Source: Candidatus Latescibacterota bacterium
Lineage (GTDB): Bacteria; Latescibacterota; UBA2968; GCA-2709665
Direction of reading: 5' to 3'
Length of the DNA stretch: 64,000 nt
Assembly: GCA_965205485.1 (NCBI GenBank)
Contig: OZ242180.1
Location: forward strand, 409,292 to 473,291
The stretch's first letter is position 1; each line of letters opens with the position of its first letter. Below the pieces are notes generated by a model. That model made no database searches and was not told where the DNA came from. It worked only from the letters and a program-made list of their open reading frames with translations. Shown here piece by piece: positions 12,343-40,600 of the stretch. The position numbers were made by a program, and so were the translations under genes.

Positions 12343-14018
12343 CCGGGTTTTTCTCCTACGGTAAGCCGACTCTTGTCCTGCGTCTGATTGCAATCCTGCT
12401 TTCCTTCGGTCTCGTCTCTGAACCCGTCATGCTGTTCGCGCAATCGGGACCCGGGCGGGAACTGGGCCGGAGGAGGTCCGATCGCAAACCCATCGGCGCA
12501 ACGCTGCAGCCGGACGAAATGCAGGGCCTGGACGTGAAGTGGATCGGTAAAATCGCTTACGACGCCATTATCCGCTCCGAACGCTACATTGTCGGTCCAG
12601 GCGATACCTTCAGCATACACATCGAAGCCGGCGAGGAACCGGTGACGCACCCCGTTCTTGTCAATGCGGAAGGCAAACTGGTCATTCCGTACGTCGGCGC
12701 AATCCAGTTGGCGGGGCTCAACCTTGGAGAAAGCCGGAAGAAGATCCAGGAAGCGGTCAGCGAAAGCCTGAACCGGCTCGATATCCAGATCTCGCTCACC
12801 CGGCTGCGCAGTTTTCCGGTCAACGTTGTAGGACAGGTGACCCATCCCGGTACATACATGGTAGAGGGGACCGAACAGGTTTCCGAACTGATCAGCCAGG
12901 CGGGCGGGCTGCTGAAGCCACCGGACGGCAGAGCTTCGCACCGGAATATTCAGATTCAGCGACTTTCCGAAACCGGCAGGCCGATGGAAACGGAACGCAA
13001 CGCGGACCTCGCCCTGTGGCGGCTTTCGGGCGATATCGCCCACAACCCCTTCCTGCTGGATGGCGACCAGATCTTCGTGCCGGCGCTCACGGACTCAGTG
13101 CGTATCTCAGGCGCGGTCTTTAAACCCGGGAGCTACGAATTCGTCTCCGGCGATCGTGTTTCCAACCTGATTGCTCTGGCCGGTGGATTGCACGGAGATG
13201 CCGCTACCGCCAGCGCCGGCCTGCTCCGTTCTCTTTTCGCCGAAGGAAGCGAAGAACGGCACGCGATCCGGATTTCGCAGGCGCTGGCCGGCGACCCGGA
13301 TGCGGACCTGCCGCTTCGCGCGGGAGACAAACTCCACGTGGCCGTGAAGGAACGGCGGGTCAACCTGGAGGGCGAAGTGTACTTTCCCGGAACCTATTTC
13401 ATCGGTGCGGGGATGACGCTGAAAGATCTGATCGGGAAGGCAGGCGGATTCACGTCCAGAGCCTCACTCGCCCAGTCCATCGTAGTCCGCCGCGTGGAGT
13501 TTCCGAAAGGGGTGGCCGGTCCCAGACAGCTGCAGAGCGTTGGTCCCATCAGCCTGACCGACGCCCAGCGGACCTATATGGCCATGCAGAAACAGCAGAT
13601 GTCGGGGCGCCTGCCGGTCGATTTCGTCGCTCTTTTCGAGAAAAAGGACGATTCGCAGAACATCCTGCTCAGAGACGGGGATATCGTCAGGATACCCAGG
13701 CTCGTACCCTCGGTTGCGGTCAACGGATACGTCATCACGCCCGGCGCGATTCCCTACGAGCCGGATCTGGGCGTTCAGGACTACATCAGCAGGGCGGGCG
13801 GGCTTAACGAACAGGCAGAAAGAGGCGAGATATACGTGATACAGGGCAGCACCGGCAACTGGACAAAGGCCTCCAGGGTTCAGCAGGTCAATCCCGGGGA
13901 CACGATTTTTGTCATGGGCAAGAAACCCGTACACGGCTGGCGGCTCTTCCGCGAGACGCTGGTCGTGCTCTCGCAGGTGGCCGCCCTGGTCATTGCGGTA
14001 CGGAGCATCAGTCGTTAA
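12339..14018 (+). CDS. Polysaccharide export protein (Wza/OPX-like; Poly_export plus SLBB domains) with signal peptide
   Basis: Start overlaps the thrB stop (ATGA). N-terminal hydrophobic signal. VGPGDTFSIHI is a Poly_export-like motif, followed by repeated SLBB-like units (GEV.FPG.Y). Confidence 0.7.
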   Translation: MTGFFSYGKPTLVLRLIAILLSFGLVSEPVMLFAQSGPGRELGRRRSDRKPIGATLQPDEMQGLDVKWIGKIAYDAIIRSERYIVGPGDTFSIHIEAGEEPVTHPVLVNAEGKLVIPYVGAIQLAGLNLGESRKKIQEAVSESLNRLDIQISLTRLRSFPVNVVGQVTHPGTYMVEGTEQVSELISQAGGLLKPPDGRASHRNIQIQRLSETGRPMETERNADLALWRLSGDIAHNPFLLDGDQIFVPALTDSVRISGAVFKPGSYEFVSGDRVSNLIALAGGLHGDAATASAGLLRSLFAEGSEERHAIRISQALAGDPDADLPLRAGDKLHVAVKERRVNLEGEVYFPGTYFIGAGMTLKDLIGKAGGFTSRASLAQSIVVRRVEFPKGVAGPRQLQSVGPISLTDAQRTYMAMQKQQMSGRLPVDFVALFEKKDDSQNILLRDGDIVRIPRLVPSVAVNGYVITPGAIPYEPDLGVQDYISRAGGLNEQAERGEIYVIQGSTGNWTKASRVQQVNPGDTIFVMGKKPVHGWRLFRETLVVLSQVAALVIAVRSISR

Positions 14019-15217
14019 TGGAACCCGAAAAGAACTTTCTCGACCATCTGGCCGTCCTTGTGCGCTGGCGGCGAATGATACTTGTCACCTGTATCACCGT
14101 ATCCGTCGTGACGGCGGGCGTCAGTCTGATCATCACCCCGGTCTACCGAGCAAACGCCGTCCTGTTTCCGCCCAGCGAGAGCCAGGGAACGCTGGGCATC
14201 TCCGCCATTCTCGAAAAACTGCCGGTGGGAATGCTGGGCATGGGGGAAAGCGTCGTTTCGGCTACGGAATTCGTGCCGATCCTGAAAAGCCAGCGCGTGG
14301 CCGAAGCCATCATCCGCCGATTCAATCTTCAGAAAACGTACGACGCCGAAACCCGGGAGGAACTCCTGCAGATGGTCGACGACCGGCTGGAAGTGGAACT
14401 CTCCCGCGAACAGTTCCTGACCGTATCCTACGAAGCGGAGTCACCGGAAACGGCCGCCGAGATTACCAATGCCTTCGTCGAAGAGCTCGATCTTGCGTTG
14501 AAGCACCGGCGCGAGCAACAGGCGCGCGACCTCCGCAGCTACCTGGAGAAACGCCTGGCGCAGGCCGAACGCAGCATGATCGAAGCCGAAGTGGCGTATA
14601 ACGCGTTCCAGAAGGAACATTCGGCCATCGACATAGAGAGCCAGACCAAGGCGCAGATAGACGCTTACTCCTCCCTCATCACTTCAACGCTGGGCGAGAT
14701 GTTCATCCGCCGCGAAATCGCCGCCCTTCAGATGAACCCCGACAACAGCAGGGTCCGGCAGCTCGAGATCGAGATCGAGGGTGCGAGAGAGGCCCTGGAC
14801 GGCATCCTCGCGGGGTCGGACACCGACAGCGTAGGGAGCACGGTTCGCGATATGCCCGGCATCATGCTACCGATGGACCGGATCCCGGACCTGGGACTGC
14901 AGGCCATGCGACTGATGCGCGAGATGGAAATCCGAAACCTGATCTATCAGTTCGTACTTCAGGAATACGAAAAAAGCAGTTTTGAAGAGAAAAAGGAAAC
15001 GTCCCTGGTCGTGGTTCTGGACCCGGCCGTGCCGCCCGACTTTCGGAGCCGCCCGCGGCGCGCGCTGATGGTTGGCACCGCCGCCGGTCTGAGCCTGCTC
15101 CTGAGCATCCTGGTCGCATTCGTGATGGAGGCCCTGCGAAGTCCCGCTCCGGAAAACCGCAACCGGCTGGAGGCGATCCGCCAGGAACTCAGGCCCCCGA
15201 AAACCCGGCAAGAGTAA
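14018..15217 (+). CDS. Polysaccharide co-polymerase / chain-length determinant (Wzz/GumC-like)
   Basis: Coupled start (TAATG). Two TM helices, one N-terminal and one C-terminal, flanking a long coiled-coil periplasmic region: PCP topology. Confidence 0.6.
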   Translation: MEPEKNFLDHLAVLVRWRRMILVTCITVSVVTAGVSLIITPVYRANAVLFPPSESQGTLGISAILEKLPVGMLGMGESVVSATEFVPILKSQRVAEAIIRRFNLQKTYDAETREELLQMVDDRLEVELSREQFLTVSYEAESPETAAEITNAFVEELDLALKHRREQQARDLRSYLEKRLAQAERSMIEAEVAYNAFQKEHSAIDIESQTKAQIDAYSSLITSTLGEMFIRREIAALQMNPDNSRVRQLEIEIEGAREALDGILAGSDTDSVGSTVRDMPGIMLPMDRIPDLGLQAMRLMREMEIRNLIYQFVLQEYEKSSFEEKKETSLVVVLDPAVPPDFRSRPRRALMVGTAAGLSLLLSILVAFVMEALRSPAPENRNRLEAIRQELRPPKTRQE

Positions 15218-15259: not shown

Positions 15260-16261
15260 ATGTCCCATCGCATACTCACCACCGTCGTTGGAAGCTATCC
15301 CGTGCCGGACTGGCTTCAATTCTCTCCCTCCCGACAGACGTTGATCGATGCCATTCGTGTCGTGTTGAAAACCCAGGAAGACGCGGGAATAGACGTCGTC
15401 GCGGACGGAGAACTCTACCGGTTCGACGTCAATCATCCTGAAACCAACGGCATGATCGACTATTTCGCTCGAAGACTGGGCGGTATCGCAACCCGGTTCG
15501 GACGTGAGGACCTGGATGCGTTTCGCTCGGATGCCGGCCTTTCCTATCGTGCGGACCCCGCGGGCATAATCGAGCGCGAACTCGACGAAGGCACGCTCAA
15601 TCTGCCAGAGGACTGCCGCATGGTCCGGCCTCTGACGCGGTCCAGGTTGAAATTCACCCTCACCGGACCGCACATGTTCAGCAAGGTCCTTATGGATCGC
15701 CACTACGGAGACCCGGCGGCCGCGGCCCTGGCGCTTGGCGAACTCCTCGCCAGACAGGTTGCCGATATCGACGCGGACGTGATCCAGATCGACGAAGCCA
15801 ATATCCCCGGACACCCTGAAGAAGCCGACTGGGCTGCCCGCGCGATAAACACCGTACTGGACGCGGTTCAGGGAGAGAAAGCGGTGCACGTCTGCTTCGG
15901 GAATTACGGCGGCCAGACCGTTCAACGAGGCGCGTGGCAGGACCTGGTCCCGTATCTCGCCGCGTTGAGGGCGGACCATCTCGTCCTTGAATTCAAACGC
16001 TGGGGAATCAAACACGCGGCATGCCTGAAGGACGTTCCCGAGTCCGTTCGGATCGGGATCGGTGTGATCGACATCAAGACCAACGCGGTGGAGACCCCTG
16101 ACGAAATCGCATCCGACATCGAAGCCGCGGCGGGCCTCCTCGGGCCGGATCGAATCGCCTGCGTCCATCCCGATTGCGGCTTCTGGATGCTCCAGCGCAG
16201 CGTTGCCGACCGGAAGATCGAAGCCCTCGTAAGGGGGCGGGACCTCTTCGAAGGGCGTTGA
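15260..16261 (+). CDS. Core methionine synthase (cobalamin-independent MetE C-terminal catalytic domain only; UroD/MetE-like TIM barrel)
   Basis: 333 aa, lacking the N-terminal MetE barrel. Zn-ligand-like positions (VHVCFGNY...; CVHPDCGF) sit in the MetE C-terminal-domain arrangement. Confidence 0.7.
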   Translation: MSHRILTTVVGSYPVPDWLQFSPSRQTLIDAIRVVLKTQEDAGIDVVADGELYRFDVNHPETNGMIDYFARRLGGIATRFGREDLDAFRSDAGLSYRADPAGIIERELDEGTLNLPEDCRMVRPLTRSRLKFTLTGPHMFSKVLMDRHYGDPAAAALALGELLARQVADIDADVIQIDEANIPGHPEEADWAARAINTVLDAVQGEKAVHVCFGNYGGQTVQRGAWQDLVPYLAALRADHLVLEFKRWGIKHAACLKDVPESVRIGIGVIDIKTNAVETPDEIASDIEAAAGLLGPDRIACVHPDCGFWMLQRSVADRKIEALVRGRDLFEGR

Positions 16262-16311
16262 ACCCGGCGGCCTTTTTGCTGAACCAATTCACTGTCGCCC
16301 GAATCCAGTCT

Positions 16312-19300
16312 ATGCGTTCAATTCGAAAAAACCACAGTATACTGTTCATCCTTGGCGTTCTGCTCGCGCTGGCCGACGCGTCATTTGCCCAGAATCGCGG
16401 TTCGCTGATTACGATTGCAGGCGGCGGCGACCGGGAAGGCGAGAATATCCCCGCGACCGACCTTGCCCTGAGCGTCCCCCTCGGCGCCGCTACCAGCGCC
16501 GACGGCCACGTCTATATCGCCGATACCGGCACGCACCGCATCCGCAGGGTGGATGCGGTCACCGGGCAGGTCACGACCATAGCCGGAACCGGAGAGGCCG
16601 GATTCGCGGGCGACGGAGGACCCGCCGCCGAAGCGCAACTGGACAGACCCCAGGGCATCGCGGTCGATGAGGCCGGCAACGTATATATCGGCGATACGGG
16701 CAACCGGCGCGTCCGGCGCATCGACGCCGCAACGGGGATCATCACCACCGTCGCGGGAAGCGGCGAGTTCGGTTTCGACGGCGACGGAGGTCCGGCTGTC
16801 TCCGCCGTACTCGGCGAAATCGTCGCTCTGACTATAGGCCCTCGCGGCGGACTCTATATCGCTGACGGGCTGGACGGACAGGCGCGGGGCAACAACCGGG
16901 TGCGGAGGATCGACCTCGATACCGGCGTGATCACCACCCTTGCAGGCGACGGCGATTTCTCATTCGGCGGCGACGACGGCCCGGCGGTTGAAGCCGGACT
17001 GACGGTAGAAGACGTCGCAGTCGACGCGTCGGGAAATATCTTCATCGCGGACTTCAACAATTATCGCATCAGGCGTATAGACGGTGAGACAGGCATAATC
17101 AGCACTGTGGCAGGCCGCGGTCCCGTATTCGGAGGCGGCGGCGCATTCTCAGGCGACGGCGGACCGGCCACCGAGGCACGGCTCGATCTGCCCGGCGGCG
17201 TGGCCGTCGGCGTGGACGGAACCCTCTATATATCGGATACCGGCAACAACCGCGTCCGCGCCGTGGATTCCGGTACCGGGAATATCTACACCCTGGCGGG
17301 CACAGGCAATTTCGGATCCGCCGGTGACGGCGGGCCGGCGCCGCTCGCCGAACTCCGAGAGCCCTCTCGCGTGGTCCTGGACCCTGACGACAACCTGATC
17401 GTCGTGGATACCGGCAACAGCCGCATCCGAAAACTTCTCGACCCTGCTTTCCAGTCGCCCGTTCTCAGTCTGACCGCCGCCCGTGTCGACTTCGGAGCGG
17501 TCGTTGTGGAAGACCAGACGACGCGCACGTTTGCGATCGGAAACGTGGGGAGGCGCACCCTCACGCTGTCCAGCGCTTCGACCGACCGGCGGGAGTTCGT
17601 CCTTCTGAACGCATTCCCGGTCGAAATCGATCCGTCCGGGGAGACTGAAATTCAGATTCGGTTCAGCCCCCTGGACGAAGGTGTCGTGCAGGGAACGCTC
17701 ACCATCAATACCGACGATCCATGGCGTCCCGAAGTCACCGTCCCTCTCTCGGGAACGGGCGCGGCGCCGGACATCGGAGTTTTCCCCGAAAGCATCGAAT
17801 TCGATCGTACGTACGTGGGCCGTGAGCAGTCAATCGTCCTGCGGGTCGCAAACCTCGGCGCAGGCGTACTGACGGTCTTCCGCGCCGAACTGACAGACCC
17901 GGTACAATTCTCCGTCAGCCTGGACGATACCCTGCGCATCCCGTCGAGCCTTAGACAGAGCCTGGACGTCGTGTTCCGACCTGTCAACACAGGCACGCAG
18001 CGAGCGGAACTCACGCTGTACAGCAACGATCCCAACGACCCGGAGCTGGTCATACCCCTCCGCGGCTTCGGAAGGGAATCCCGGCCGGGCGGTTTCCTCG
18101 ACGCGGCGGCAGGCCTGAGGATGGCCGATAGCGGCGCCGGCTTCGGCGCCGCCTGGGCGGATTACGACGGGGACGGAGACCCCGACCTGTACGTGGTGCG
18201 CAGCCTGCAGTCCAACCTGCTCTACCGGAACGACGGGGACGGCTTTACGGAGGTGGGCTCCGTGGTTGGCGTGGCGGACGACGGCGACGGCAGCGCGGCC
18301 GCCTGGGCGGACATCGACGGAGACGGCGATCTGGACCTGTACGTCACGAACTTCGGACAGCCCAACCGGCTCTACCGCAACGATGGCAACCGATTCTCCG
18401 AAATCGCCGCGCAGGCCGGCGTGGACGACGGAGGAGACGGGTACGGCGCCGCCTGGGCGGACGTGGAGGGAGACGGCGACCCCGACCTGTACGTGGCCAA
18501 CTTCGGCGATAACCGGTTCTACCGGAATGAACGCGGCCGCTTTGTCGAAGCCGCCGCGGATGCCGGTCTGGACGACGACAACAGCAGCCTGCAGCCGGCG
18601 TGGGCGGACTACGACGGGGACGGCGACCCGGATCTCTTTCTTGCGAACAGCGGGCCGAATCGACTCTTCAGAAACGACGGCGGCAGCTTTGCGGACGCTT
18701 CGTCGGACGCGGGCCTGGAGGAACTCGGACTGGGCGGAGCGAGCTTCGGAGCGGCCTGGGGCGATTTCGATAACGACAGGGACCTGGATCTGTACGTGAC
18801 CTATTTCGGCGAAGGCAACCGCCTTTATGTCAACATCAACGGCCGGTTCGAGGAGTCCAGCAGCAGATTCGACGTGGCGGGACCGGACACCGTGGACAGC
18901 AGGGGCGCGGTCTGGGGTGATTTCGACAGTGACGGCGATCTGGACCTCTTCGTCTCCAATGCCGGAGTGAAGAACAATCTCTACCGAAACGAAGGCGGTA
19001 CCTTCACCGACATGGCTGACTCCTTCCGCGTGGCGGGCGGCGCCAACAGCCGCGGCGTGGCCCTGGCGGACTTCAACGGCGACGGCGGGCTGGACATCTT
19101 CGTGGTCGTTCAGGACGACGCCGACCATCTGTACCAGAACCGGGAATTCAATGGAAACTGGCTGGCCATTCGTCCGCGCGCCACAAGGAGCAGTCCGGAT
19201 GCCATCGGCACGCGATTTGAAATCGCATTCGACGGCACGGCCGCGACCCGGGAGATCACGGGCGGCGCGTCCTATCTTTCCCAGGACGCCCTGACCGCGG

Positions 19301-21030
19301 TCTTCGGCCTGGGAGACGCCAGCCAGGTCGATACCCTGACCGTTCGATGGCCGTCGGGCATCGCGCAGCGCCTCAGGAACATCGCCGTAAACACCGTCCT
19401 TGAAGTCACAGAAACGGCCCCGGCCCCGCCCGTACGCGTCGCGCTGGATGCCGCTGTGCCCGTTCTGGCGGCCAACGGCGAGGCGCGGACCCGAATCCGC
19501 GCCCGCGTCCTGGACGCCAGGGACGAAGTCGCGCTCATCGGCAACCGCCGCCTGATCTTCAGCGTCTCATCCGGCGACGGCGCGTTCGTGGGGAGCGATA
19601 CGGCGGCGGTGCGGGACGGGCTGGCATCCATCCTCTTTCAGGCCGGTATTACACCTGGCGACGTATCGGCAACCGCGCGGTTCCAGGGCCTTCCCCCCGC
19701 GCAGGTTACGATCCGCCTGCTGCCGCCCATCGGGCCGGACCACACGTCCATGCTCACGCTCGCCGGAATCGGCGGGAGTCAGAGCAGCTTCGGGGGTGAC
19801 GGCGGCAACGCCGACCAGGCTTTCCTGAACACCCCGAGGGGCGTCGCGGTCGCGGCAGACGGCGTCCTCTACATCGCCGACTCGGGCAACAATCGTGTGC
19901 GACGGGTCAACGCGGATGGCTCGATCAACACGATCGCCGGAGATGGAATCGGAATCTCCATCGGAACGGGGGGGCCGGCGACAGAAGCCAGTCTCGGCGA
20001 TCCCCGGGGCCTCGCGCTCACTCCGGAAGGCGATCTGATCGTTGGCGAAGTGAGCGGTCATATCGTGCGCCGGATCGACCTTTCGAGCGAGAACATCCTC
20101 GCCTTCGCAGGCAGGGACATCCCCGGTTACGGCGGCGACGGACGCGCGGCGGCGGATGCGAATCTGTCGGGCCCCGTGGGGGTTGCGGCGGACGCTCTGG
20201 GAAACATCTGGATTGCGGAACGCTTCAACCACAGGGTCCGCAAGGTGGACGCCAGCGGCATCATCTCCACTGCTGCCGGCAGCTTCCAGGAGGGTCACGC
20301 AGGGGACGGAGAACCCGCGACGATGGCTGCGCTGAACGGACCTGAAGGTGTTGCCGTAGATAGTCGCGGCCGCCTGTACATCGCCGATACGGGAAACCAT
20401 CGCATCCGCATGGTGGATACCGAGGGCATCATCTCCACGGTGGCCGGCACCGGAGACGCCGGCTTTTCCGGCGACGGCGGACCCGGCAAAACGGCCCTGC
20501 TGAACGGCCCTGTCGATGTGGCGGTGGACGACAACGGATACGTTTATATCGCGGACACCGGCAACCATCGGATACGGGTCCTGGACTTGAACCTTGGCAT
20601 CATACAGACCGTTGCCGGGACGGGATTTCCGGGATTCAACCAGGCCGAAGGCGCCGGTACCGAGACGACGCTGAATTCGCCGTCGGGCCTCGCCACCGAT
20701 CCCGAGGGCAGGGTCTACGTTGCCGATACGAACAACAACAGCATCCTTCAACTCACCGTAGACTTCCCCCCGGAATACCACCGCGAGGCCCCGCCCGTCC
20801 CGCCTCCGCCGCCACCTCCGCCTCCCGTGGATGGTCGGGCCGATTTCAATGGCGACGGCGCGGTTGACTTTGCTGACTTCATCCTCTTCGCGCGGGCATA
20901 CGGTTCCAGCGATATGCGTTATGACCTCGACGGCGACGGAACGGTCGGGTTCGGAGATTTTATCGCCTTCACCAACGCCTTCGAACAGACCCCGCCTACA
21001 GTGCGATTCCGGCCGGGAAGCCGTTTCTGA
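16312..21030 (+). CDS. Giant secreted multidomain protein: 6x NHL propeller, 2x choice-of-anchor-D-like Ig domains, FG-GAP/VCBS propeller plus UnbV/ASPIC C-terminal domain (CRTAC1-like), Big-like Ig domain, second 6x NHL propeller, poly-Pro linker, C-terminal dockerin-like module
   Basis: Signal peptide MRSIRKNHSILFILGVLLALADASFAQ. Repeated YIADTGNHRIRRVD-type NHL blades. Seven repeats of AAWADYDGDGDPDLYV(T/A)NFG..NRLYRN. A C-terminal DFNGDGAVDFADFILFARAYG...DLDGDGTVGFGDFIAFTNAF pair of Ca-binding dockerin-type repeats. Confidence 0.85.
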   Translation: MRSIRKNHSILFILGVLLALADASFAQNRGSLITIAGGGDREGENIPATDLALSVPLGAATSADGHVYIADTGTHRIRRVDAVTGQVTTIAGTGEAGFAGDGGPAAEAQLDRPQGIAVDEAGNVYIGDTGNRRVRRIDAATGIITTVAGSGEFGFDGDGGPAVSAVLGEIVALTIGPRGGLYIADGLDGQARGNNRVRRIDLDTGVITTLAGDGDFSFGGDDGPAVEAGLTVEDVAVDASGNIFIADFNNYRIRRIDGETGIISTVAGRGPVFGGGGAFSGDGGPATEARLDLPGGVAVGVDGTLYISDTGNNRVRAVDSGTGNIYTLAGTGNFGSAGDGGPAPLAELREPSRVVLDPDDNLIVVDTGNSRIRKLLDPAFQSPVLSLTAARVDFGAVVVEDQTTRTFAIGNVGRRTLTLSSASTDRREFVLLNAFPVEIDPSGETEIQIRFSPLDEGVVQGTLTINTDDPWRPEVTVPLSGTGAAPDIGVFPESIEFDRTYVGREQSIVLRVANLGAGVLTVFRAELTDPVQFSVSLDDTLRIPSSLRQSLDVVFRPVNTGTQRAELTLYSNDPNDPELVIPLRGFGRESRPGGFLDAAAGLRMADSGAGFGAAWADYDGDGDPDLYVVRSLQSNLLYRNDGDGFTEVGSVVGVADDGDGSAAAWADIDGDGDLDLYVTNFGQPNRLYRNDGNRFSEIAAQAGVDDGGDGYGAAWADVEGDGDPDLYVANFGDNRFYRNERGRFVEAAADAGLDDDNSSLQPAWADYDGDGDPDLFLANSGPNRLFRNDGGSFADASSDAGLEELGLGGASFGAAWGDFDNDRDLDLYVTYFGEGNRLYVNINGRFEESSSRFDVAGPDTVDSRGAVWGDFDSDGDLDLFVSNAGVKNNLYRNEGGTFTDMADSFRVAGGANSRGVALADFNGDGGLDIFVVVQDDADHLYQNREFNGNWLAIRPRATRSSPDAIGTRFEIAFDGTAATREITGGASYLSQDALTAVFGLGDASQVDTLTVRWPSGIAQRLRNIAVNTVLEVTETAPAPPVRVALDAAVPVLAANGEARTRIRARVLDARDEVALIGNRRLIFSVSSGDGAFVGSDTAAVRDGLASILFQAGITPGDVSATARFQGLPPAQVTIRLLPPIGPDHTSMLTLAGIGGSQSSFGGDGGNADQAFLNTPRGVAVAADGVLYIADSGNNRVRRVNADGSINTIAGDGIGISIGTGGPATEASLGDPRGLALTPEGDLIVGEVSGHIVRRIDLSSENILAFAGRDIPGYGGDGRAAADANLSGPVGVAADALGNIWIAERFNHRVRKVDASGIISTAAGSFQEGHAGDGEPATMAALNGPEGVAVDSRGRLYIADTGNHRIRMVDTEGIISTVAGTGDAGFSGDGGPGKTALLNGPVDVAVDDNGYVYIADTGNHRIRVLDLNLGIIQTVAGTGFPGFNQAEGAGTETTLNSPSGLATDPEGRVYVADTNNNSILQLTVDFPPEYHREAPPVPPPPPPPPPVDGRADFNGDGAVDFADFILFARAYGSSDMRYDLDGDGTVGFGDFIAFTNAFEQTPPTVRFRPGSRF
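18100..18700. repeat. Intragenic near-identical tandem repeats (~147 bp units encoding FG-GAP/VCBS blades)
   Basis: DNA segments GCCTGGGCGGA(T/C)TACGACGG(G/A)GACGG(A/C)GA(C/T)CCCGA(C/T)CTGTACGTG recur at ~18153, 18300, 18447 and 18595. Confidence 0.7.
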
Positions 21031-22681: not shown

Positions 22682-24430
22682 ATGCGATTCTCACCGCGAA
22701 AAATGGTGCAGCGCCCCCTGCGTGAGAGCACGGGCAACAGGGCCCTGCTGGTACTGGTGGACAGCAGGGGCAGCTATACGGACACGAGCATCGTGGATCA
22801 AACCGTACTCGTCGCGTTGCAGCATTTCGGATTTCCATTCAGGATCCACGATCTTGCCGCGGGGCCCTTGACTGCCGACCTGCTTGACGGTTGCGCGGCG
22901 GTCGTTATCGCACAGTCGCGCCTGGGAAATACCCTTTCGTTCGAGGAAACCGAACTGCTGGCCTCGGGCGTGGAGGAAGCCGGGATGGGCCTGGTCAATT
23001 TCGACGGTGAGCTGCGGCTGTACAAACCGCCGCTGCTTCGGCTGTTGGGTCTGGAGGTCGACCGGATTCCCATGGCATCGGACCTGCTGCGCATTGGGGG
23101 CGACGACCACTTCATCAACTGGACGCAGCAGGCGGGCAGAATGGTCCGGCTGAAGCGACCGGTGACCGTTGCGCAGATCAAGCGCATGGGTCGGCACGTC
23201 GTGGAACTGGCGCAGGCCGCGATGGGCAAGGAACAGCTCATCTTCTCACGCCACAACGTCCCGGGCACGGCCTACGAGCCGGACCAGTATCCTGTCGTCC
23301 TCGCCGGGGTCTGCGGCATCGGCCGGGCGGTGCAGTTCGCCTGTTCGCCCCGGATCTGGCACCAGGAGTTTCTGGGCCACGCGATGGGGCTGGACGCCTT
23401 CTTCTGGCGCGCCATCGTCTGGGCCGCGCGCAAGCCGTTCATCGCGCAGATGATGCCGCCCTATGTGACCATCCGTGTGGACGACGGCAGGGGACGCCAT
23501 GATTTCCGCTATACGGAGGTGATGAACCGGCACGGTTACCGCCCGATGATCTCCTGCTTCCTGGACCTCGTACCCGGCGAAGTCGTACCGTTCATGCGCG
23601 AGCGTTACAAGGCGAGACAGGTGGACTGGGACGCGCATGCATTCGACTATTACAAGCTGATTCCATTCGAATTCGGCATCGGGGAGTACAGCGAGGCGGA
23701 GTTGAAGGAAATCTTCGAACGGGTGGACCGATGGTACGACGAACGGGGCATGAAGCCGCCGCGCCGGGCCGCGTTTCACTGGGGCGAGGTGGGCGTGCGC
23801 GTTCTGCCCTATCTGAAGGCCCGGGGGCGGACGTTTGTCTATTCGACCTACCACCTGGGACAGGTGAAGTGGGAGCGGCTGTTCCCCAACTGGTGGCCGT
23901 ACGGTCTCAACAGCCTGTTCTACGACTATATCCCCGAGGACCCGGAGATGTACAACATCGGCGCCATGCTCCCCCGCCACCTCGTGGAGCCCGACGTACT
24001 GACGGGCTGTACGACCTGGGCCGGGGACAATCCGACCAACGATATGGATAAGGCCGCGGATCGGGCGGCCGGCTCGGTCCGCCTGGCGCTGGACAGCGGG
24101 TTCTTCTCGGAGATCACGACGCACGAGCAGAAGTTCGGCGTGCTGTCGCTGGAAGAGATCGACCGATGGCTGTCGCTGGTGGCGCAGCGGACGGAGCGAT
24201 TCGATATCCGGGGCGTGAGCCACGACGAAGCCGCGGAGTATACCCGCTCCCGTGACGAGTCGTGGATCGGATCCGCGTCCACGCCCGACGGCAAGTCAGC
24301 GTACCTCGCCCTGGATGGCAAGGCGAGCGTCGACCAGAAACTGGCCGTTTTCGAAAACGACGGAGACGGCGTGGTCCAGAGGTGGGAGTTGGTCGCCGGG
24401 TTTGAGGGGGAGGTCCGGGTCGATCTGTGA
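22682..24430 (+). CDS. Hypothetical 582-aa protein, possibly a two-domain hydrolase/deacetylase-like enzyme. No signal peptide seen.
   Basis: Long ORF with an alternating hydrophobic-core pattern. No motif I can assign confidently. Confidence 0.55.
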   Translation: MRFSPRKMVQRPLRESTGNRALLVLVDSRGSYTDTSIVDQTVLVALQHFGFPFRIHDLAAGPLTADLLDGCAAVVIAQSRLGNTLSFEETELLASGVEEAGMGLVNFDGELRLYKPPLLRLLGLEVDRIPMASDLLRIGGDDHFINWTQQAGRMVRLKRPVTVAQIKRMGRHVVELAQAAMGKEQLIFSRHNVPGTAYEPDQYPVVLAGVCGIGRAVQFACSPRIWHQEFLGHAMGLDAFFWRAIVWAARKPFIAQMMPPYVTIRVDDGRGRHDFRYTEVMNRHGYRPMISCFLDLVPGEVVPFMRERYKARQVDWDAHAFDYYKLIPFEFGIGEYSEAELKEIFERVDRWYDERGMKPPRRAAFHWGEVGVRVLPYLKARGRTFVYSTYHLGQVKWERLFPNWWPYGLNSLFYDYIPEDPEMYNIGAMLPRHLVEPDVLTGCTTWAGDNPTNDMDKAADRAAGSVRLALDSGFFSEITTHEQKFGVLSLEEIDRWLSLVAQRTERFDIRGVSHDEAAEYTRSRDESWIGSASTPDGKSAYLALDGKASVDQKLAVFENDGDGVVQRWELVAGFEGEVRVDL

Positions 24431-24514: not shown

Positions 24515-27500
24515 TTATTCCGAATTGCCTGTGATCAGGATACGAATGACGATGTTTGCACGGCCCCCCTTCCCGTCGCCGGACCGCACGATCACGGTAT
24601 ATCCGCGTTTCCTGTTGAAGTCATACGTGCCCTTCGTCAACAACTGCCCGGAGCCGGGGTCAATTTCGAAGTACTCCGCATCGGTGCCCCACAGGCTGTA
24701 CGTGAGCACGTCACCGTCCGTATCGCTCGCAGTGATCGGATCCCCGATCGGTTCTCCCGGTGGCGTGCCGCCGGCCACGGCAAGCGTTGCGGGCTGCACG
24801 GGCGCAAACGCGGGCATGCGGTTCACGCGTTCTCCGAAGCGCCGGGCGAATGCGACGAAATCGCCAAACGTGATCCGGCCGTCACTGTCCAGGTCAAACC
24901 TGGCATCATGCCCCTCATCGCCCTCTGCGGATCCAAACGCGCCGGAGAACAGCACAAAGTCGGCGAAGTCCACCACCCCGCTCCCGTCGAAATCAGGCGA
25001 TAGCGGCGCGGGAGCATGAAGCAATACGCTCACCGTTCGCGTCATCGCCTCCGGATGCTCCCCGCGCACCAGGTCCGCTCCCGCCAACCGGACCTCCGTC
25101 TCCCTAAACCCCTCCGTCGTCCTGAAGCGCACTGTTCCCACCTGCCCGCTGTCGACCGCGGCCCCGCCGCTCAGCGACGAAACGCCGATCTGCACGAACG
25201 TCGAGTCCTTCGCCACCAGCGCCGTCACGCCCGGCAACGCATCGCCCGCGTCGAAGCCCTCATACACAACCTGCGTCGTGTCATAGCCCACCCGGAAATC
25301 CACACCGCGCGTTCCCCGGATATCCGCGCCGAATATCTGTATGGAGACGACTCGACCTGATTCGACGCGCATCGTCCGGAGGTCCTGGTCTTTCTCCGAC
25401 GCATCCAGGTCCAGCGAGAGGGAGAACAGGTCATACAGGACCAGGACCTCCGTCCGTACCAGCCCCAGGGTCAACCAGTCGCCGTCACCCGATGCGCTGT
25501 TCGACCGCACCTGCACCTCGTATTCCGTGTCGGGGTCCAGACCCTCGATGATCGCGCTCGTGTCCGTCACGTCCTGGGGCCCGTCCTTCCATACGCCTTC
25601 GCTGCCTTCACGATACCGCACGTCGTAGCCCGTAACGGGTTCCCCATCATCATTGGTCGGCGCCGCCCAGCCGATGGTCACGCTGCCCGGCGACGTCTGT
25701 GTCACCGCGGGTTCCACCGGCGGTGGCGGCGGCGCGAGCGTACTCACCGGCTTCAGGGACGTCCACGCGCTGTGCTCCGAGTTGCCGCTGGACCGCACCT
25801 GCACCTCGTATTCCGTGTCCGCGTCCAGACCCTCTATGGTCGTGCTGGTTCCCCTCACGTCCTGGGGGCCGTCCTGCCATTCCCCCTCGCTGACTTTACG
25901 GTACCGCACGTCGTAGTTCCTGATCAGAGGACCGTCGCCGGTCGGCGCCTTCCATTGTAACGCCACGCTCGTTGTCGACACTCCAGTCGCCGTCGGCGAC
26001 ACCGGAGGCAGGGGCGGTGTTGGCGGCGGTGGCGGGGTCGGAGGAGGTGGTGGGGGAGGAGGAGGTGGTGGTGGAGGTGGCGGAGGAGGTGGTGGGGGAG
26101 GTGGCGGCGGCAGTTGCTCGTTAGCGTCCTCGCCGAAGACCCAGGGACGGGCCTGCTTGATCGCCAGGATATTCTCACTGGTGATCTTGAACTCGATCTC
26201 CATCGCGAAGGGCTCGCCGGATGCGGGGTTGTACAACCCCTCGAAGTGGTCGTGGATCACGTAGAGGTGATCGCGCAGCTGACGCATCTGGTCTCGGCTC
26301 ATCAACAGTTCCCCGCGCTCTACCAGGTTCGAGAGTGCTCGGATGATGAGTCCATCTCCCGGCAGGAGGACGATCTCCTCGGGTACGGAGTGCGCCTCGG
26401 GATTGGTGACCAGGTCCTCGCCGAGTTGCGAGTTGACGTAGTGTCGGCCCACAATGGAAGTGACGGGGTCGAAGCTGACCGCCACCCCGTTTACCCGCTC
26501 ATCGGAGAAGTTGGGATGGACCAACACGCCCATCGCGGCCGCGAGGTGGTCGACGCGGTGAAACTCCCGCTCCGAAAACGCCCGGAAGGTCCAAAGGCCG
26601 GCGAGCACCTGCTTGAACGACTTGTCAATCCCGTCCTCCGTGGTCTCCTCCGGGTGCTGCGTCTTGGAGTCGTACAGCCCGGCGCCGTTGAACCCGGGAA
26701 GGTCCTCGTTGTTGGTGCTCGACCGGTACCGCAGCGACGTCTCCGCAGGGAAGGTTGCGTGCATGGCGGTGAGGGCGTCGACCATCCACTGGGGCGTCTC
26801 GGCGTCCTTGATGGCATCACGCAGGTCGTCGAGCATCTCGTCCTGGATATCCAGATCGGTCCGGAACTTCGGGTGGGCCAGAATCGCCTCGACGGCCTCG
26901 ACGAGCATCGTGTCGGCCGCCAGTGTGAGTTTCTCGTCAGCGGGCGCGCTCCCCATGCCAAAAACGGTCTCCTCTCCCAACGTTTGTTTCATGAACTCGT
27001 CATAGAAGTAGAAGGGTATGGCGAAGCCGTCGCGTACGGTGCCCTCCGGGAATCCGAGCGTCCGCAGGACCGCCAGATTGGCCGCCTTGACGCCGAAGGC
27101 CTTCCAGTCGTCGAAGCCGATCTGGTCGAGGGGCGTGATCTCCGTAATCGAGAGATCGCGCTGCGGCGTCTGGGTCTCGGCCGGGCGGGACGACTCGTAA
27201 TGGGCCTCGACTTCCTGAAGGGTTGCCGCCCGCAGCTCCCATTGGCGCTCCGTCACTTCGTACCTGACGTAGCTCCCCTCGAGGGAAATGACGTCGGCGT
27301 GGTCGAGGGCGTCCTTCACGTAGGCGTTGGGTATGCCGTCCTGCACCGCGCGCAGGTTTACGTGCGAGAGCGGCGTCTGGGGCGCGGCGGTAAGGATGCC
27401 GGCCACGCGGGGCAGCTCGTTGGGCAGCGTCTCGGAGACGATGATCTCGCGAGGATGGGGGCGTTCGTCCGCCTCCAGGATCCTCAGCCGCCCGTAACCC

Positions 27501-28447
27501 GTTCCGGTGTTGAGCGCCAGGAACTCCACGTCGCCGAAGAGTTCGGAATCGTACACCAGGGGGATCCGGGATGCCCGAAGCTGGGACAACCGATCCTGGA
27601 CAAGCGGAAGCAGAATGCTGTCGACGTGCAGGGTGAGGTTGTTATCAATCACGCCCATGCTGGCAGCGAGCACAGTGTGCAACTTCTCTGCCTGAGGGAC
27701 CGACTCTGCAGCCAGCCGCGGAAAGTATTCGTAGTAGAAGCCCCCGACAGCGCGGCCTTGCACCGTGAATCCCGGATCGTAGGTGATGGTGCCGGTAATC
27801 GCTCCTTCTCGCTGCAGGCCCACCGCATCAAAAAAGTACCGGTGGCTCTGGTACCGCTTCGTGTTCATGAAGTAAACCGCCGGATGCGCGGTATCCAGGT
27901 TCACCAGAACGAACTTCAGTACGGTTCCCCCGTAGAGCCCGGTTCCGAGTGCCTGAAACGCCGCGAGGTCGGGGACGGCCACAGCGCCATCGTTCGGATC
28001 CGAAATCGTGGCAGGGTTGACGGGGTTCATGCTCCCCAGGTTGTCGAGTTCGGTGACGTCGTCGATGCAGTCGCCGTCGACGTCGGCCGGGTCGGCGATC
28101 TGGTACTTCTCCACCCGGTAGCGCTCCGCGGACAAGGCCGCGAGGTTTTCCGACAGCGTGGTCGTGCCCGCCTCCCCCCGGGTCACCGCCACCGGAACCT
28201 GCAGCTCCGTGCCGTCCACGTCGAATGTCACGTAGAGTACGAAGTAGTCGTCGGTCGTAGACGTGACCACGATGGGAACCGCCGTCACTGTGATCTCCGC
28301 CGGCGTCGGGTCATAGCCGCCGCCTTCACACGGCTCCTGCAGTGTTCGAAACGAAGGGAAGAAGCTTCGCCCTTCAACGGCGACAGTGAACAGAGTTAAG
28401 GACAGCACCAAAACAGGAGGAATGGTCCGTACGCTTGTCAATGGCAT
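24515..28447 (-). CDS. Giant secreted multidomain protein: N-terminal region, PPDK_N/PEP-utilizer-like ATP-grasp domain, 25-residue poly-Pro linker, 2x fibronectin type III, cohesin-like domain, dockerin-like module, cadherin-like domain
   Basis: Start taken at MPLTSVRTIPPVLVLSLTLFTVAVEG (signal peptide); the longer ORF-track start runs into the 32-bp repeat. AFGVKAANLAVLRTLGFPEGTVRDGFAIPFYFYDEF and SLRYRSSTNNEDLPGFNGAGLYDS resemble the PPDK_N nucleotide-binding motifs. WKAPTGDGP...YDVRYR...EYEVQVRS x2 are FN3 domains. DFDGSGVVDFADFVLFSGAFG...DLDSDGRITFGDFVAFARRFG is a dockerin pair. The C-terminal DTDGDVLTYSL...FEID is cadherin-like. Confidence 0.85.
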   Translation of the reverse strand: MPLTSVRTIPPVLVLSLTLFTVAVEGRSFFPSFRTLQEPCEGGGYDPTPAEITVTAVPIVVTSTTDDYFVLYVTFDVDGTELQVPVAVTRGEAGTTTLSENLAALSAERYRVEKYQIADPADVDGDCIDDVTELDNLGSMNPVNPATISDPNDGAVAVPDLAAFQALGTGLYGGTVLKFVLVNLDTAHPAVYFMNTKRYQSHRYFFDAVGLQREGAITGTITYDPGFTVQGRAVGGFYYEYFPRLAAESVPQAEKLHTVLAASMGVIDNNLTLHVDSILLPLVQDRLSQLRASRIPLVYDSELFGDVEFLALNTGTGYGRLRILEADERPHPREIIVSETLPNELPRVAGILTAAPQTPLSHVNLRAVQDGIPNAYVKDALDHADVISLEGSYVRYEVTERQWELRAATLQEVEAHYESSRPAETQTPQRDLSITEITPLDQIGFDDWKAFGVKAANLAVLRTLGFPEGTVRDGFAIPFYFYDEFMKQTLGEETVFGMGSAPADEKLTLAADTMLVEAVEAILAHPKFRTDLDIQDEMLDDLRDAIKDAETPQWMVDALTAMHATFPAETSLRYRSSTNNEDLPGFNGAGLYDSKTQHPEETTEDGIDKSFKQVLAGLWTFRAFSEREFHRVDHLAAAMGVLVHPNFSDERVNGVAVSFDPVTSIVGRHYVNSQLGEDLVTNPEAHSVPEEIVLLPGDGLIIRALSNLVERGELLMSRDQMRQLRDHLYVIHDHFEGLYNPASGEPFAMEIEFKITSENILAIKQARPWVFGEDANEQLPPPPPPPPPPPPPPPPPPPPPPPPTPPPPPTPPLPPVSPTATGVSTTSVALQWKAPTGDGPLIRNYDVRYRKVSEGEWQDGPQDVRGTSTTIEGLDADTEYEVQVRSSGNSEHSAWTSLKPVSTLAPPPPPVEPAVTQTSPGSVTIGWAAPTNDDGEPVTGYDVRYREGSEGVWKDGPQDVTDTSAIIEGLDPDTEYEVQVRSNSASGDGDWLTLGLVRTEVLVLYDLFSLSLDLDASEKDQDLRTMRVESGRVVSIQIFGADIRGTRGVDFRVGYDTTQVVYEGFDAGDALPGVTALVAKDSTFVQIGVSSLSGGAAVDSGQVGTVRFRTTEGFRETEVRLAGADLVRGEHPEAMTRTVSVLLHAPAPLSPDFDGSGVVDFADFVLFSGAFGSAEGDEGHDARFDLDSDGRITFGDFVAFARRFGERVNRMPAFAPVQPATLAVAGGTPPGEPIGDPITASDTDGDVLTYSLWGTDAEYFEIDPGSGQLLTKGTYDFNRKRGYTVIVRSGDGKGGRANIVIRILITGNSE
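25320..25920. repeat. Tandem duplicated ~300-bp FN3-encoding modules inside the giant gene
   Basis: Two segments share long identical DNA stretches (CTGCACCTCGTATTCCGTGTC...GTCCAGACCCTC...CACGTCCTGGGG), mirrored by the paired ORF-track shadows at 25341..25628 and 25653..25916. Confidence 0.7.
25990..26110. repeat. GGN-rich microsatellite-like tract encoding a 25-residue polyproline linker (minus strand)
   Basis: GGTGG/GGAGG triplet run of ~110 bp. Confidence 0.8.
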
Positions 28448-28513
28448 GTCATTTACGTGAGATGCGACTTCAGGGAGGTTATGGATTGAACGTGACAGAC
28501 AGGTCTTGCGCAC

Positions 28514-28548
28514 GTGGGCAGACAGGAATGTCCGCCCCACCTTCACAC
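28514..28548. repeat. 32-bp hairpin repeat (copy 3 of 3), in the 5' leader ~70 nt upstream of the giant gene start on the minus strand
   Basis: GTGGGCAGACAGGAATGTCCGCCCCACCTTCACAC is identical to the 3580 copy. Confidence 0.8.
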
Positions 28549-29015
28549 CGGTCCTTCGCGGTAAGGGCGCCGTCGCTGTCCAGATCGTCGCATATTATAT
28601 ATTATTATTGTGATAATATACTAAATTATGATGACTATATAGTGAATAATGCGCTTTATTATCGTGACGTTATCGTGATTTTTCGCTGAAACAACACGGC
28701 TTCCCGGCGATGCCGGTCGGTAGACCTGCAGCAGAGGGTTGCCGTCGGTCGCTGACCGGATCGCCACGTGGTAGAATCAGGTGTACAGTGGGAGGGTATG
28801 GCGTCCGGGGAGAGTCGTGAAGCGACATTCGGGTTGCTGAACCTGACCGTCGAGTGCGAGAAAACGTGGGCGTCCGTGGGTGGGCGCTGCGTGGAATTGA
28901 TAGCAGATAGGTATTGTCGCCGGATGTGCTCCGTTTCAGCCCGGTGGGATCGCAGAGTCGTACAGAAGAAAGGCCCTGCTGACATATTCTCAGCAGAGCC
29001 CGTGGGAAGAAGCCA

Positions 29016-37614: not shown

Positions 37615-40600
37615 TTACTTGAGCAACATCAACCGCCTGGTGCCCTGAAACTTACCCGCAACCGAGATCCGATAGAAGTAAATTCCACTCGAAACCGATA
37701 CGCCGCGGTCGTCCATACCGCTCCACTGCACCGTATACCGTCCGGGCGCCTGGCGCTCGCGCACCAGCGTTCGAATTTCCTGACCCAGCAGGTTGTAGAT
37801 CCTGAGTAACACGTCGCCGCCTTCAGCCAGGTCGTACGGAATGTTGGTCTGCGGGTTGAACGGATTCGGATAGTTCTGGTGCAGCGCGAACTCCGTGGGT
37901 GTGCTCTGCACGTCCAGCGCGCCAAGCGTCACCACCGGGTTCTGCAGCTGATTCCCGTCGAACACCACGCCCTGTGCGATCTCGAAGCGGGCGACCTCCT
38001 CGAACTCTCTCAGAACCTGGAACGTGAAGGTCACCAGGGCGCCTTCGCCGCTCACCGTTCCCGACTCGGTAATGAGGTTCACCACCGAGACCCGACCCTC
38101 TTCAGGCCAGTTCCTGAACAGCGGCGTCTCACCCCCCTCGGACTTCAGCAGATCGTTGTCGGCGGGTACGGCGCTGACGAACTCAAACTTGTCAGCGTCA
38201 TACATCAGCTCCAGACCGTAGCCGTTTAGCGATTTGGCGTTGGCCATGGACACCGTCAACGAAATCGTCTCGCCAACCAGCACCTTGTCGCCGGCCAACT
38301 CGAGCGTCATCTCCGTATCGGCGTTCGCACCCGGACGCCGCGGAACCACCGCCAGCTTGCTGCCGGCAGGCAACACCGCCGTGCGACCGAATGTCGCTGC
38401 CGCCGCTACGAAGTCCGCGAAGTTGATCACGCCGTCGTCGTTCACGTCGGCCTGCGGGTTGTAGTTTTTATCGCCCTTCCGGCTGCCGAAGGCCGCACCG
38501 AAGGTGACGAAGTCCTCAAAGTCGACCTCGATGCTGCCGCCTTGCGCAGGCAGCGCCATCAGGTAGACGGGATCCCCGTTGGCGTCCACGAAGGACACAC
38601 GGACGGAGATGCCTGTAACCGTGATCAGATCGCTCATCGCGACGTTGTTATCGTCGAATGCGTCGATGCGATAAACCAGCGAGCTTACGCCGTCCGGCAG
38701 GTGGTCGTCGGTGAACCGGTTGGATCCCGGAGCCAGCGTGGCGATCTGCTTGAGGCCGTCGGCAGAAGCGCCTCGCATCACCGTGTAGCCCTTCACACCC
38801 AGGATCGGGACGTTGTAGCCGTTATACGGAATGGAGCCAACAACATGATCGCTGGCCGAGGCCGTCCACCGCAGCACCACACCGCCTGCGCCTTCACCGG
38901 AAGCGTCGGTAACCGCGGCGGGAGCGATGTCGTCAATGGCTGCCACCGGCTCCTCCGTGGCCGTGCGGGCGGACGACAGAAAACTGCCCGCGGACGCATG
39001 GCCGGCGGTCCGGATGTTGGCCGGAATATTGGCGCTGCCGATCAGCCCGCTCACGTCGGGATTCGCCGGCGCGAAGATGACATTCTTCCGATCGCCAATG
39101 AGCGCCTTGACGTAGTCTTCAGGCGCGTTGAACCGATCGTTCAGCTCTTCGTCCGTCAGAAGCTCCGCCTCGGGCATACCCAGCAACTGCACCGTCTGCC
39201 GGATGCTCTCCTTCGTGAACACGCGCTTGCCGGCCGTGGTCACCTCGGATTCTCCCGTACCGGTCACCGCCGTGACGCCCCAGTTGGTGGCCACGTTGTC
39301 AATTGCGGGAACGATCACGGTCTGCATGTCGCCGCCCGCGTCGCCCATTTCGTCACCGGCGTCAGCCGAGAAGCTGACCCTCGTCCACTCCATCCACTCC
39401 ATCCTGGGCGCTTCCAGATCCACAAGATTGCCATCTTCATCCGTGGTCTGCGTGACCTCAACTTCACGCTCGATCCGGTAGTGAGTCACCGCATCGTGCT
39501 GCGCGGAGTTCGGGAAGCTGACCACGACAATGCCGCCCTGGTCGCCCTGCCCGTCCGCGCCCCTGTAGTCCTGCACCACGATATTGGCCGGCGCTGCAGG
39601 CGCGCCCGGATCCGGGCCGTCTCCGTCGCCGGATACGATGCTGACCGTTACGCTGCCCGCGAGGGCGCCGGTTGTCGCGTCGTCGCCCGTTCCGGTTTCA
39701 TAATCCTCTGCAACGGTCCTGACGCTGATCGTCGCGCTGCCGCCCGCGTCGGAGGCCACCGCCCCGTACGTGGCCCCTTCGATGCCGGTCACCATCTGCT
39801 GGCCGGAAGGCACGGTCACCGCGGCATTGCTGGACGCGAAGGTGAAGGCAATCGATTCATAATCCTTCGAGTCCGTATTGTTGTCAATCCTCAAACTGGG
39901 GTTGGCGAACGAGTCGGTCGGTACCACGTGGACCGAAAACGCACCGGCCACGTTCTCAGTCGAGATCTCATCCTCGATGGCCGTGAGGGTGAACTTCGAA
40001 AACTCCGCGACCTCGATGTTGATCGGCTTGGCCGCCTGGCCGCTGATACGCAGCGTGTAGGCACCGGTGGCGGGATCGTAGTCGCCCTCGGCCGCGTACA
40101 GGATCACGCCGGTGAGCGGCTTCTCGGACTTGAACTTGACGGTCCGCGAACCCGCGTGCCAGCCGTCGCCGTTCAGGATGGCGGCCTTCGCCACCATCCC
40201 CAGGGCGGCCAACTCGGCGGGTAGCGCGAACCCGGGCGCCGGAGACACGCCGGCGCCGCTGAAGCTCGCGGCTTCAAGCGCTTCGGCCTGGTCGCCGGAA
40301 ACGATCGCGGCCAGCGCTGACGGCGTGTGATACGTCACCGCCCGAACGTCGGCGGCGTCACTATTCTGTTCCTTTTCGATACGTGTCAGCGTCGTGTCGA
40401 GCACGGACAGCGATATGGCGACGTCCACGCCGGCGACTTGCTTCTCTTCCAGATCAGGATCCGGCACAACCTTGAACATATCGGCGTCCGGATTCCCGAA
40501 ACGCTCGGTGAACGTGAGCGTACCGCCGTCCGCCATTCTGACGTTACCCGCCAGGTCGAACGCCAGAATTTGCAGATGATACCGCTGGCTCTCGACGAAG

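Follow-up and report, generated by a model that had tools for sequence, protein, structure and literature searches.

Gene and domain organization

We analysed a 64,000-nucleotide stretch of contig OZ242180.1 from a Candidatus Latescibacterota bacterium (hereafter, the window), in which a minus-strand gene at 24515–28447 encodes a protein of 1310 amino acids plus a stop codon that combines an N-terminal signal peptide, a dikinase-type ATP-grasp domain and a tail of extracellular domain types. On balance, we favour the view that the product of this gene is an exported, surface-tethered, His-dependent dikinase. The minus-strand open reading frame (ORF) 24515–28546 is the true coding frame; it stays open upstream as far as a GTG at 28546, and its third-position GC content of 0.79 is the same as usual for the coding ORFs of the window. 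The most likely start codon is the ATG at 28447, ahead of which no Shine-Dalgarno sequence was evident on reading the upstream sequence. The plus-strand ORF 26114–28399 was rejected as an antisense shadow with a low-complexity, Arg/Gly-rich translation. An exact-sequence look-up with the protein returned no matching record. Residue numbers given here count from the ATG at 28447 (numbers in the search query are lower by 1 and those in the structure model are lower by 36), and all features of the protein lie on the minus strand.

The signal peptide (residues 1–27, MPLTSVRTIPPVLVLSLTLFTVAVEG; 28367–28447), assigned from hydrophobicity and comparison with homologues, is followed by an N-terminal beta-sandwich (residues ~45–150; 27998–28315), which is all-beta in the structure model and has no Pfam match. 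The sandwich holds a calcium-binding-like loop DxDxDGDxxDDxxE (DPADVDGDCIDDVTELDNLG, residues 119–138), whose Asp/Glu cluster is invariant in an alignment of the two clades of the family described below. Cys127 lies inside the sandwich and Cys40 just upstream of it, and a gammaproteobacterial relative has a different N-terminal region in its place. The next domain (residues ~151–308; 27524–27997) has an alpha/beta fold modelled at a predicted local distance difference test score (pLDDT) of ~80–95, and is a candidate acceptor-binding domain; its His202 and Ser293-Arg294 are invariant in the two-clade alignment. The N-terminal ~270 residues are conserved to the same degree as the catalytic part, and no Pfam family matches within residues 1–340; likewise, no PDB sequence matches these ~270 residues. 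A match of the alpha/beta domain to multicystatin repeats (8.5 bits per repeat) was judged spurious. Among members of the Bacteroidota-type clade, this domain carries a Gly/Arg-rich low-complexity insertion (GGFGGRGGRGRG) of ~10 to more than 80 residues (e.g., L065 7866–10136, P0272, P0312, P0360 and P0376), which members of the window's clade are without.

The catalytic part begins with a predicted swivel-type phospho-histidine domain (residues ~309–410; 27218–27523), supported by profile-profile alignment to glucan, water dikinase (GWD) and by sub-threshold matches to GWD1_pHisD. Its predicted phospho-carrier, His362 (codon 27362–27364), lies in the motif QTPLSHVNLRAVQDGIPNAY (QTPLSHVNLRA). 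A linker recognized from the secondary structure of the model (residues ~411–444; 27116–27217) leads to the dikinase-type ATP-grasp, or PPDK_N, domain (residues ~445–771; 26135–27115), identified by PF01326 and by profile and structure matches. Its key residues are Lys454 (FGVKAAN), Arg573/Arg575 (RYRSS), Glu750/Glu752 (MEIEFK) and Gln765/Arg767 (KQARP). A preliminary description of this DNA had presented the ATP-grasp as a domain embedded in a giant surface protein; the domain itself is borne out, but it is one part of a conserved four-domain module of ~735 residues rather than an isolated domain.

Downstream of the module, the translation reveals a poly-proline linker (residues ~779–822; 25982–26113), and Pro-rich linkers also follow the module in many homologues. 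Two fibronectin type III (FN3) domains come next (25463–25981; PF00041, E=1.2e-25 in two stretches), then a weak cohesin-like beta-sandwich (25103–25360; PF00963, 12.5 bits vs. a cut-off of 24.1), a dockerin-like or EF-hand calcium-binding pair (24833–24994; Dockerin_1, 18.3 bits vs. 22.9; EF-hand_1, E=2e-4) and a weak cadherin-like C-terminal domain (24518–24805; PF00028, 15.1 bits vs. 28.8). Thus, of the tail as first described, the poly-proline and FN3 parts hold, the FN3 domains solidly, whereas cohesin, dockerin and cadherin are resemblances below the Pfam cut-offs.

The ATP-grasp and phospho-histidine domains

The ATP-grasp domain scored 58.2 bits against PPDK_N (PF01326; cut-off 27, E=1.1e-15) over profile positions 4–310 of 328 (307 covered). 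A nucleotide-binding domain of this type had been placed at 26150–27140 from two sequence motifs, GVKAANLAVLRTLGFPEGTVRDGFAIPFYFYDEF (26993–27094) and SLRYRSSTNNEDLPGFNGAGLYDS (26666–26737), both of which fall within the PPDK_N domain, in agreement with that assignment. The NCBIfam models for phosphoenolpyruvate (PEP) synthase and rifampin phosphotransferase match only the ATP-grasp part and remain far under their equivalog cut-offs. A search of the family profile against PDB recovered the ATP-grasp of PEP synthase (E=2e-10).

Structure prediction led to the same domain. The final AlphaFold2 model, built from 76 sequences of two clades, has a pLDDT of 89.8 and a predicted template modelling (TM) score of 0.83; it superseded a poor earlier model from 61 close homologues (pLDDT 65.7). 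In a Foldseek comparison with PDB, the model matched rifampin phosphotransferase (RPH; 5hv1, E=7.5e-14), PEP synthase (PEPS; 2ols, E=1.6e-13), HpeI (9goj, E=3e-12) and pyruvate phosphate dikinase (PPDK; 1kbl, E=3e-8), and its TM score with the isolated ATP-binding domain of RPH (5hv6) is 0.71. The match is far beyond chance, and the predicted fold is that of a dikinase-type ATP-grasp.

The presence of a swivelling phospho-His domain had been named in the preliminary description as a point to check. Upstream of the ATP-grasp, the motif PRVAGILTAAPQTPLSHVNLRAVQDGIPNAY resembles a swivel-domain phospho-His loop. The only Pfam family recurring over this region is GWD1_pHisD (PF22973), which was seen in seven of 14 diverse members; the PEP-utilizers mobile domain (PF00391) gave no match in the His domain, and a PDB profile search with that domain found nothing. 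We further compared the family alignment with an alignment of 20 plant and bacterial sequences that carry the name alpha-glucan water dikinase in their source records and were found with a GWD fragment as the query, the matches being 76–83% identical to it. The hhalign comparison gave a probability of 95.8% (E=6.7e-9); its 391 co-linear columns begin with the first strand of the His domain and extend to where the ATP-grasp ends, and they align LSHVNLRA to LSHVSVRA of GWD. This match stops at the His domain and does not reach the ~270 residues upstream of it. Mainly on this profile-profile result, a swivel phospho-His domain is taken to be present N-terminal to the ATP-grasp. Because the match is co-linear, the order of N-terminal region, His domain and ATP-grasp is the order found in GWD.

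In the PPDK literature, the D/E-x-E and Q-x-R motifs have roles in nucleotide and Mg binding. The residues Lys454, Arg575, Glu750/Glu752 and Gln765/Arg767 align with the motifs of PEPS and RPH and are kept by 97–99% of the family members. Among 301 members spanning the core, the Lys is retained in 294, the His in 290, the Arg loop in 292 and the EIE motif in 298, which is not the retention pattern of a pseudoenzyme. In RPH, Lys22 and Arg117, which position ATP, and the phospho-carrier His825 are essential (PMC4844700); their counterparts in our alignments are Lys454, Arg575 and His362.

Comparison with known dikinases

The closest parallel in architecture is with GWD1 (EC 2.7.9.4) and phosphoglucan, water dikinase, which likewise consist of an N-terminal substrate-binding part, a phospho-His domain and a C-terminal PPDK_N ATP-grasp, and GWD shares a near-identical loop, RS..N.EDL.G..GAGLYDS. 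However, the window protein has neither the CBM45 or CBM20 starch-binding region nor the helical region of GWD, the N-terminal domains are unrelated, and GWD is plastidial whereas the window protein is exported according to its signals. The position of the shared Arg/Gly loop also differs. In the window protein it comes earlier in the chain than the W..RA and MGVLVH motifs, which is the PEPS-type position, whereas the RSDSNGEDLEGYAGAGLYDS loop of GWD comes after its W..RA and MAVLVQ motifs. Loop SLRYRSSTNNEDLPGFNGAGLYDS shares 55% identity with the loop IFRSDSNGEDLEGYAGAGLYDS at residues 580–610 of a plant GWD (P0385; E=1e-6), and BLASTP pairs the two out of order (query 263–293 to GWD 580–610), i.e., in a non-colinear arrangement, as if permuted. 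These sequence comparisons suggest that the family may be intermediate between PEPS-type and GWD-type ATP-grasps.

RPH (PDB 5hv1, 5fbs) provides the best structural match for the ATP-grasp and shares a three-part design (ATP-grasp, swivel His, separate acceptor domain; PMC4844700). In contrast to the family described here, RPH is cytoplasmic and has the order ATP-grasp, RIF-binding domain, His domain; no RIF-binding domain was detected in the window protein, and the RIF_Ptrans_rph model (NF041857) scores 35.9 bits vs. a cut-off of 999, over the ATP-grasp only. PEPS and PPDK have a homologous ATP-grasp with matching conserved Lys, Arg, Glu, Gln and Arg residues; their domain order is ATP-grasp, His domain and TIM barrel, whereas here the His domain precedes the ATP-grasp and the PEP/pyruvate-binding TIM barrel is missing (no PEP-utilizers_C match in the Pfam scan). 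The NCBIfam PEPS/PPDK models score only 38–39 bits vs. cut-offs of 598–740 (PEP_synth, 38 vs. 740). Finally, the ATP-grasp of HpeI (9goj) is a top structural match, and HpeHI-type enzymes phosphorylate a hydroxyl through phospho-His (PMC12167813). The domains of HpeHI and phenylphosphate synthase reside on separate cytoplasmic subunits, unlike the single chain with an export signal found here. Because the module departs from GWD, from PEPS/PPDK and from RPH in defining features, we set it apart from these families and, from its sequence, would class it as a variant within the dikinase kind.

Export signals

ATP-dependent chemistry by bacteria outside the cytoplasmic membrane is generally held not to occur. 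The N-terminus of the window protein nevertheless has the features of a signal peptide, as first described, with one Arg, a hydrophobic segment and the end ...TVAVEG; its best 12-residue Kyte-Doolittle window is 2.52. Of 57 close homologues whose module is N-terminal, 56 have an equivalent hydrophobic segment, usually with an AxA-type site, directly ahead of the conserved Cys-x-G-G-G-Y start of the module (common ends are ALAQG, AFAQG and TVEGQ). Of 113 full-length members of the second clade, 102 begin with a hydrophobic signal-like segment, and 12 of these 102 carry a lipobox-like motif as well (e.g., LSISLAC in a Prolixibacteraceae protein). According to precomputed annotations, many second-clade members of the Bacteroidota type end in a Por_Secre_tail sorting domain of the type IX secretion system (T9SS). 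A cytoplasmic location is very unlikely because these three independent kinds of export signal occur together with flanking extracellular domain types. The alternative raised in the preliminary description, in which translation would start past the signal peptide, is not supported, as hydrophobic segments precede the module in the homologues.

Family size and phylogenetic distribution

With the first 800 residues as the query, more than 2600 proteins were matched. The best 120 matches are 58–85% identical across ~92% of the query, and their tails vary, with FN3, cadherin and cadherin-like domains among them; the closest relatives show 79–85% identity across the first 800 amino acids. When cluster representatives (50% identity) were searched exhaustively, 3377 matched at E<=1e-3, of which 1116 reached E<=1e-30. 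The ~735-residue module is placed N-terminally or deep within proteins of up to 3769 amino acids, and over this length identity stays at ~60% across phyla; strong purifying selection on the module is evident from the aligned sequences.

Among species-representative metagenome-assembled genomes (MAGs), carriers belong to Dehalococcoidia/Tepidiformaceae (the closest, 85%), Acidobacteriota, Latescibacterota, Acidimicrobiia, Binatia and Thermodesulfobacteriota. At 40–44% identity, the module was also found in species-representative genomes of Bacteroidota, Gammaproteobacteria and Verrucomicrobiota. The second clade, 44–50% identical and typically 740–860 amino acids long, is present in Bacteroidota, Planctomycetota, Verrucomicrobiota, Anaerolineae and Spirochaetales, and its best annotation is 'PEP/pyruvate-binding domain-containing protein'. 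Altogether, the family spans at least ten phyla and thousands of proteins. The families Poriferisodalaceae and Aldehydirespiratoraceae include sponge symbionts (PMC11706023), and many other carrier MAGs are apparently sponge-derived, judging from their names.

Several genomes have more than one copy of the module. Its paralogues may lie in tandem or nearby, as in locus L001 (7914–10364 and 15272–18214) and in L080, with neighbours that include SRCR, FN3 and cadherin proteins, or may be combined in one chain, as in the 3227-residue protein P0121 with two copies. Two giant proteins were examined: one is P0121, which has FN3 and Calx-beta domains along with its two modules, and the other (3446 amino acids) has eight cadherin-like domains, FN3 and a module. 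The homologues P0009 and P0020 carry long His/Arg repeats (HRHHHHRHHH...) at the C-terminus past the poly-Pro linker, which may be metal-binding or may reflect errors of frame or assembly over Pro-rich (CCN) repeats. In the literature searched, we found no account of an exported PPDK_N or dikinase family, so the view that the protein is unusual and has no obvious function stands.

Genomic context

The gene appears to be monocistronic. It is convergent with a plus-strand ORF of 582 amino acids (22682–24430), which is coding-like (GC3 0.82) and has no Pfam match; a gene for a RecD2 helicase lies upstream. On the 5' side of the dikinase gene is an AT-rich stretch of ~100 bp (28590–28690, minus strand) with ataataaagcgcattattcactatatagtcatcataatttagtatattatcacaataataatatataat, in a window of ~62% GC. 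This stretch is a possible promoter region, although a scan for the sigma-70 consensus called no promoter there.

Among 79 related loci, a hybrid histidine kinase/response regulator with GAF-PAS-HisKA-HATPase-REC-Trans_reg_C architecture occurs within a few kb of the module in ten (including L003 5408–7519, L014 291–2651 and L005 12928–15144); its recurrence could be due to chance or could point to a regulator. Sulfatases or glycoside hydrolases are found in some neighbourhoods of the second clade, inconsistently.

A dockerin-like/EF-hand segment of ~55 residues is shared at 50–55% identity by three giant ORFs of the window, namely the dikinase gene (24833–24994, minus strand), a 1618-residue NHL/FG-GAP/ASPIC protein (16174–21030; segment at 20842–20982, plus strand) and a 1617-residue protein (37618–42468, minus strand; segment at 38365–38538, minus strand). 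The last protein is mostly without Pfam matches along its length, and has a significant cohesin match (E=4e-8), FlgD_ig and a weak Por_Secre_tail-like C-terminus (22 bits vs. 27). A shared anchoring module or system among these giant ORFs is plausible. Upstream of the giant NHL/FG-GAP protein, the plus strand carries polysaccharide export genes (12324–15217) for Poly_export/SLBB (Wza-like) and Wzz/GNVR chain-length determinant proteins.

Proposed function and alternative explanations

The signal peptide is followed, in order, by a beta-sandwich with its putative calcium site, the alpha/beta domain, the swivelling phospho-His domain and the ATP-grasp. The interpretation that we consider somewhat better than even is that, together, these act as an exported His-dependent dikinase tethered at the cell surface. 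The analysis shows the fold, the order of the domains, the retention of the catalytic residues and the export signals; the chemistry, which we infer by homology, is modelled on GWD, RPH and PEPS/PPDK. The ATP-grasp would bind Mg-ATP, His362 would attack the beta-phosphate with release of AMP, and the gamma-phosphate would be lost as Pi. The His domain would then swing over to the N-terminal domains, where the phosphate would be passed to a hydroxyl of the bound acceptor, while the poly-Pro, FN3 and dockerin-like tail would keep the enzyme on the cell surface or matrix. The acceptor might be an extracellular glycan or a host matrix polymer, a guess that we hold weakly.

Several observations weigh against this interpretation. 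For all members of the family, dikinase activity and location are read from sequence and homology, the signal peptides having been judged from hydrophobicity and motifs rather than with SignalP. The Pfam match over the His domain is sub-threshold even at its best (GWD1_pHisD, E=6e-4, 17.5 bits vs. a cut-off of 27). The alpha/beta domain has no credible Pfam or PDB-profile match, which would make it an acceptor domain without detectable relatives. Clustering of the flanking ORFs of the 79 related loci revealed no conserved partner except further copies of the family. Moreover, we know of no ATP supply outside the bacterial membrane. ATP in seawater is generally reported to be very low. Such levels are to be set beside the Km of RPH for ATP, ~8 uM (PMC4844700).

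If the enzymes do work where their signals would take them, they may be true ecto-dikinases, a large undescribed class of cell-surface enzymes using extracellular ATP to phosphorylate external polymers (host matrix, or algal or host glycans) and passed on by horizontal transfer among sponge symbionts and marine polymer degraders. This would be comparable to GWD, which phosphorylates the surfaces of starch granules and thereby loosens them. We put this broader proposal forward only tentatively, as possible but doubtful.

Because the supply of ATP outside the cell is problematic, delivery into a host compartment, an ATP-scavenging half-reaction and a small-molecule acceptor stay alive as explanations. 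The protein could be an exported effector or toxin active only once inside a compartment rich in ATP (e.g., the cytosol or phagosome of a cell of the sponge host or of a competing cell), where it would phosphorylate a host molecule. Such delivery would remove the problem of ATP supply, and it fits the expansion of the family to several paralogues per genome in lineages with sponge symbionts among them (Poriferisodalis, Aldehydirespirator and many Dehalococcoidia, Acidobacteriota and Latescibacterota MAGs) and the neighbouring genes for eukaryote-like repeat proteins (NHL, FG-GAP, SRCR, ankyrin). However, neighbourhood clustering linked no translocation domain or dedicated injection system to the gene, the tails are composed of adhesin or anchor modules rather than delivery modules, and many members, as simple lipoproteins or T9SS cargo, come from marine Bacteroidota, Planctomycetota and Verrucomicrobiota not known to be symbionts. 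We regard an effector role as unlikely.

An explanation that seems equally unlikely to us dispenses with acceptor phosphorylation: the module would bind or sense nucleotides, or would catalyse the half-reaction ATP -> AMP + 2 Pi with water, as an ecto-ATP pyrophosphatase clearing ATP, which is an animal danger signal. RPH mutants that keep ATP pyrophosphatase activity without acceptor phosphorylation demonstrate that the half-reaction can stand alone (PMC4844700), and Pfam and PDB-profile searches recognized no acceptor-binding domain in the window protein. On the other hand, the equal conservation of the N-terminal ~270 residues, with their invariant His202 and Ser293-Arg294, is how a second active site would look, and a swivel domain is needless for mere hydrolysis or binding.

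Slightly less probable still is an exported small-molecule dikinase of the RPH, phenylphosphate synthase or HpeHI type, acting on an antibiotic or a phenolic (e.g., sponge or algal phenolics) rather than on a polymer. The closest solved ATP-grasps are indeed those of RPH and HpeI, both of which phosphorylate small hydroxylated molecules (PMC4844700, PMC12167813), but the co-linear homology and the domain order are GWD-like and not RPH-like, the RIF_Ptrans_rph score is negligible beside its cut-off, and the fused modules are of matrix- or glycan-binding types (FN3, cadherin, BACON, LTD). Finally, an ordinary cytoplasmic PEP-synthase-like enzyme with a signal peptide created by a wrong start codon, for which the lack of an evident Shine-Dalgarno sequence could be cited, is highly improbable and largely refuted by the missing PEP/pyruvate TIM barrel, the recurrence of the three kinds of export signal across more than 150 homologues and the internal position of the module among extracellular domain types, with the FN3 domains coming after it in the window protein.

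Implications

What sets the family apart is that a complete and conserved machine for passing phosphate from ATP to His to an acceptor, as predicted from homology, is systematically found behind Sec, lipoprotein or T9SS signals, in many cases in multiple copies in genomes of apparent sponge symbionts. With GWD domain order and loop sequence combined with a loop at the PEPS-type position, it may also provide an evolutionary link between PEPS-type and GWD-type dikinases. Should the module prove active outside the cell, polymers of hosts or of the environment would undergo an extracellular modification of a new type, and a usable pool of extracellular ATP would have to exist within sponge tissue or on marine particles. 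Should it prove inactive there, the family would be a large one of delivered effectors or nucleotide scavengers. Either outcome would account for many proteins now annotated as 'hypothetical' or as containing a 'PEP/pyruvate-binding domain'.

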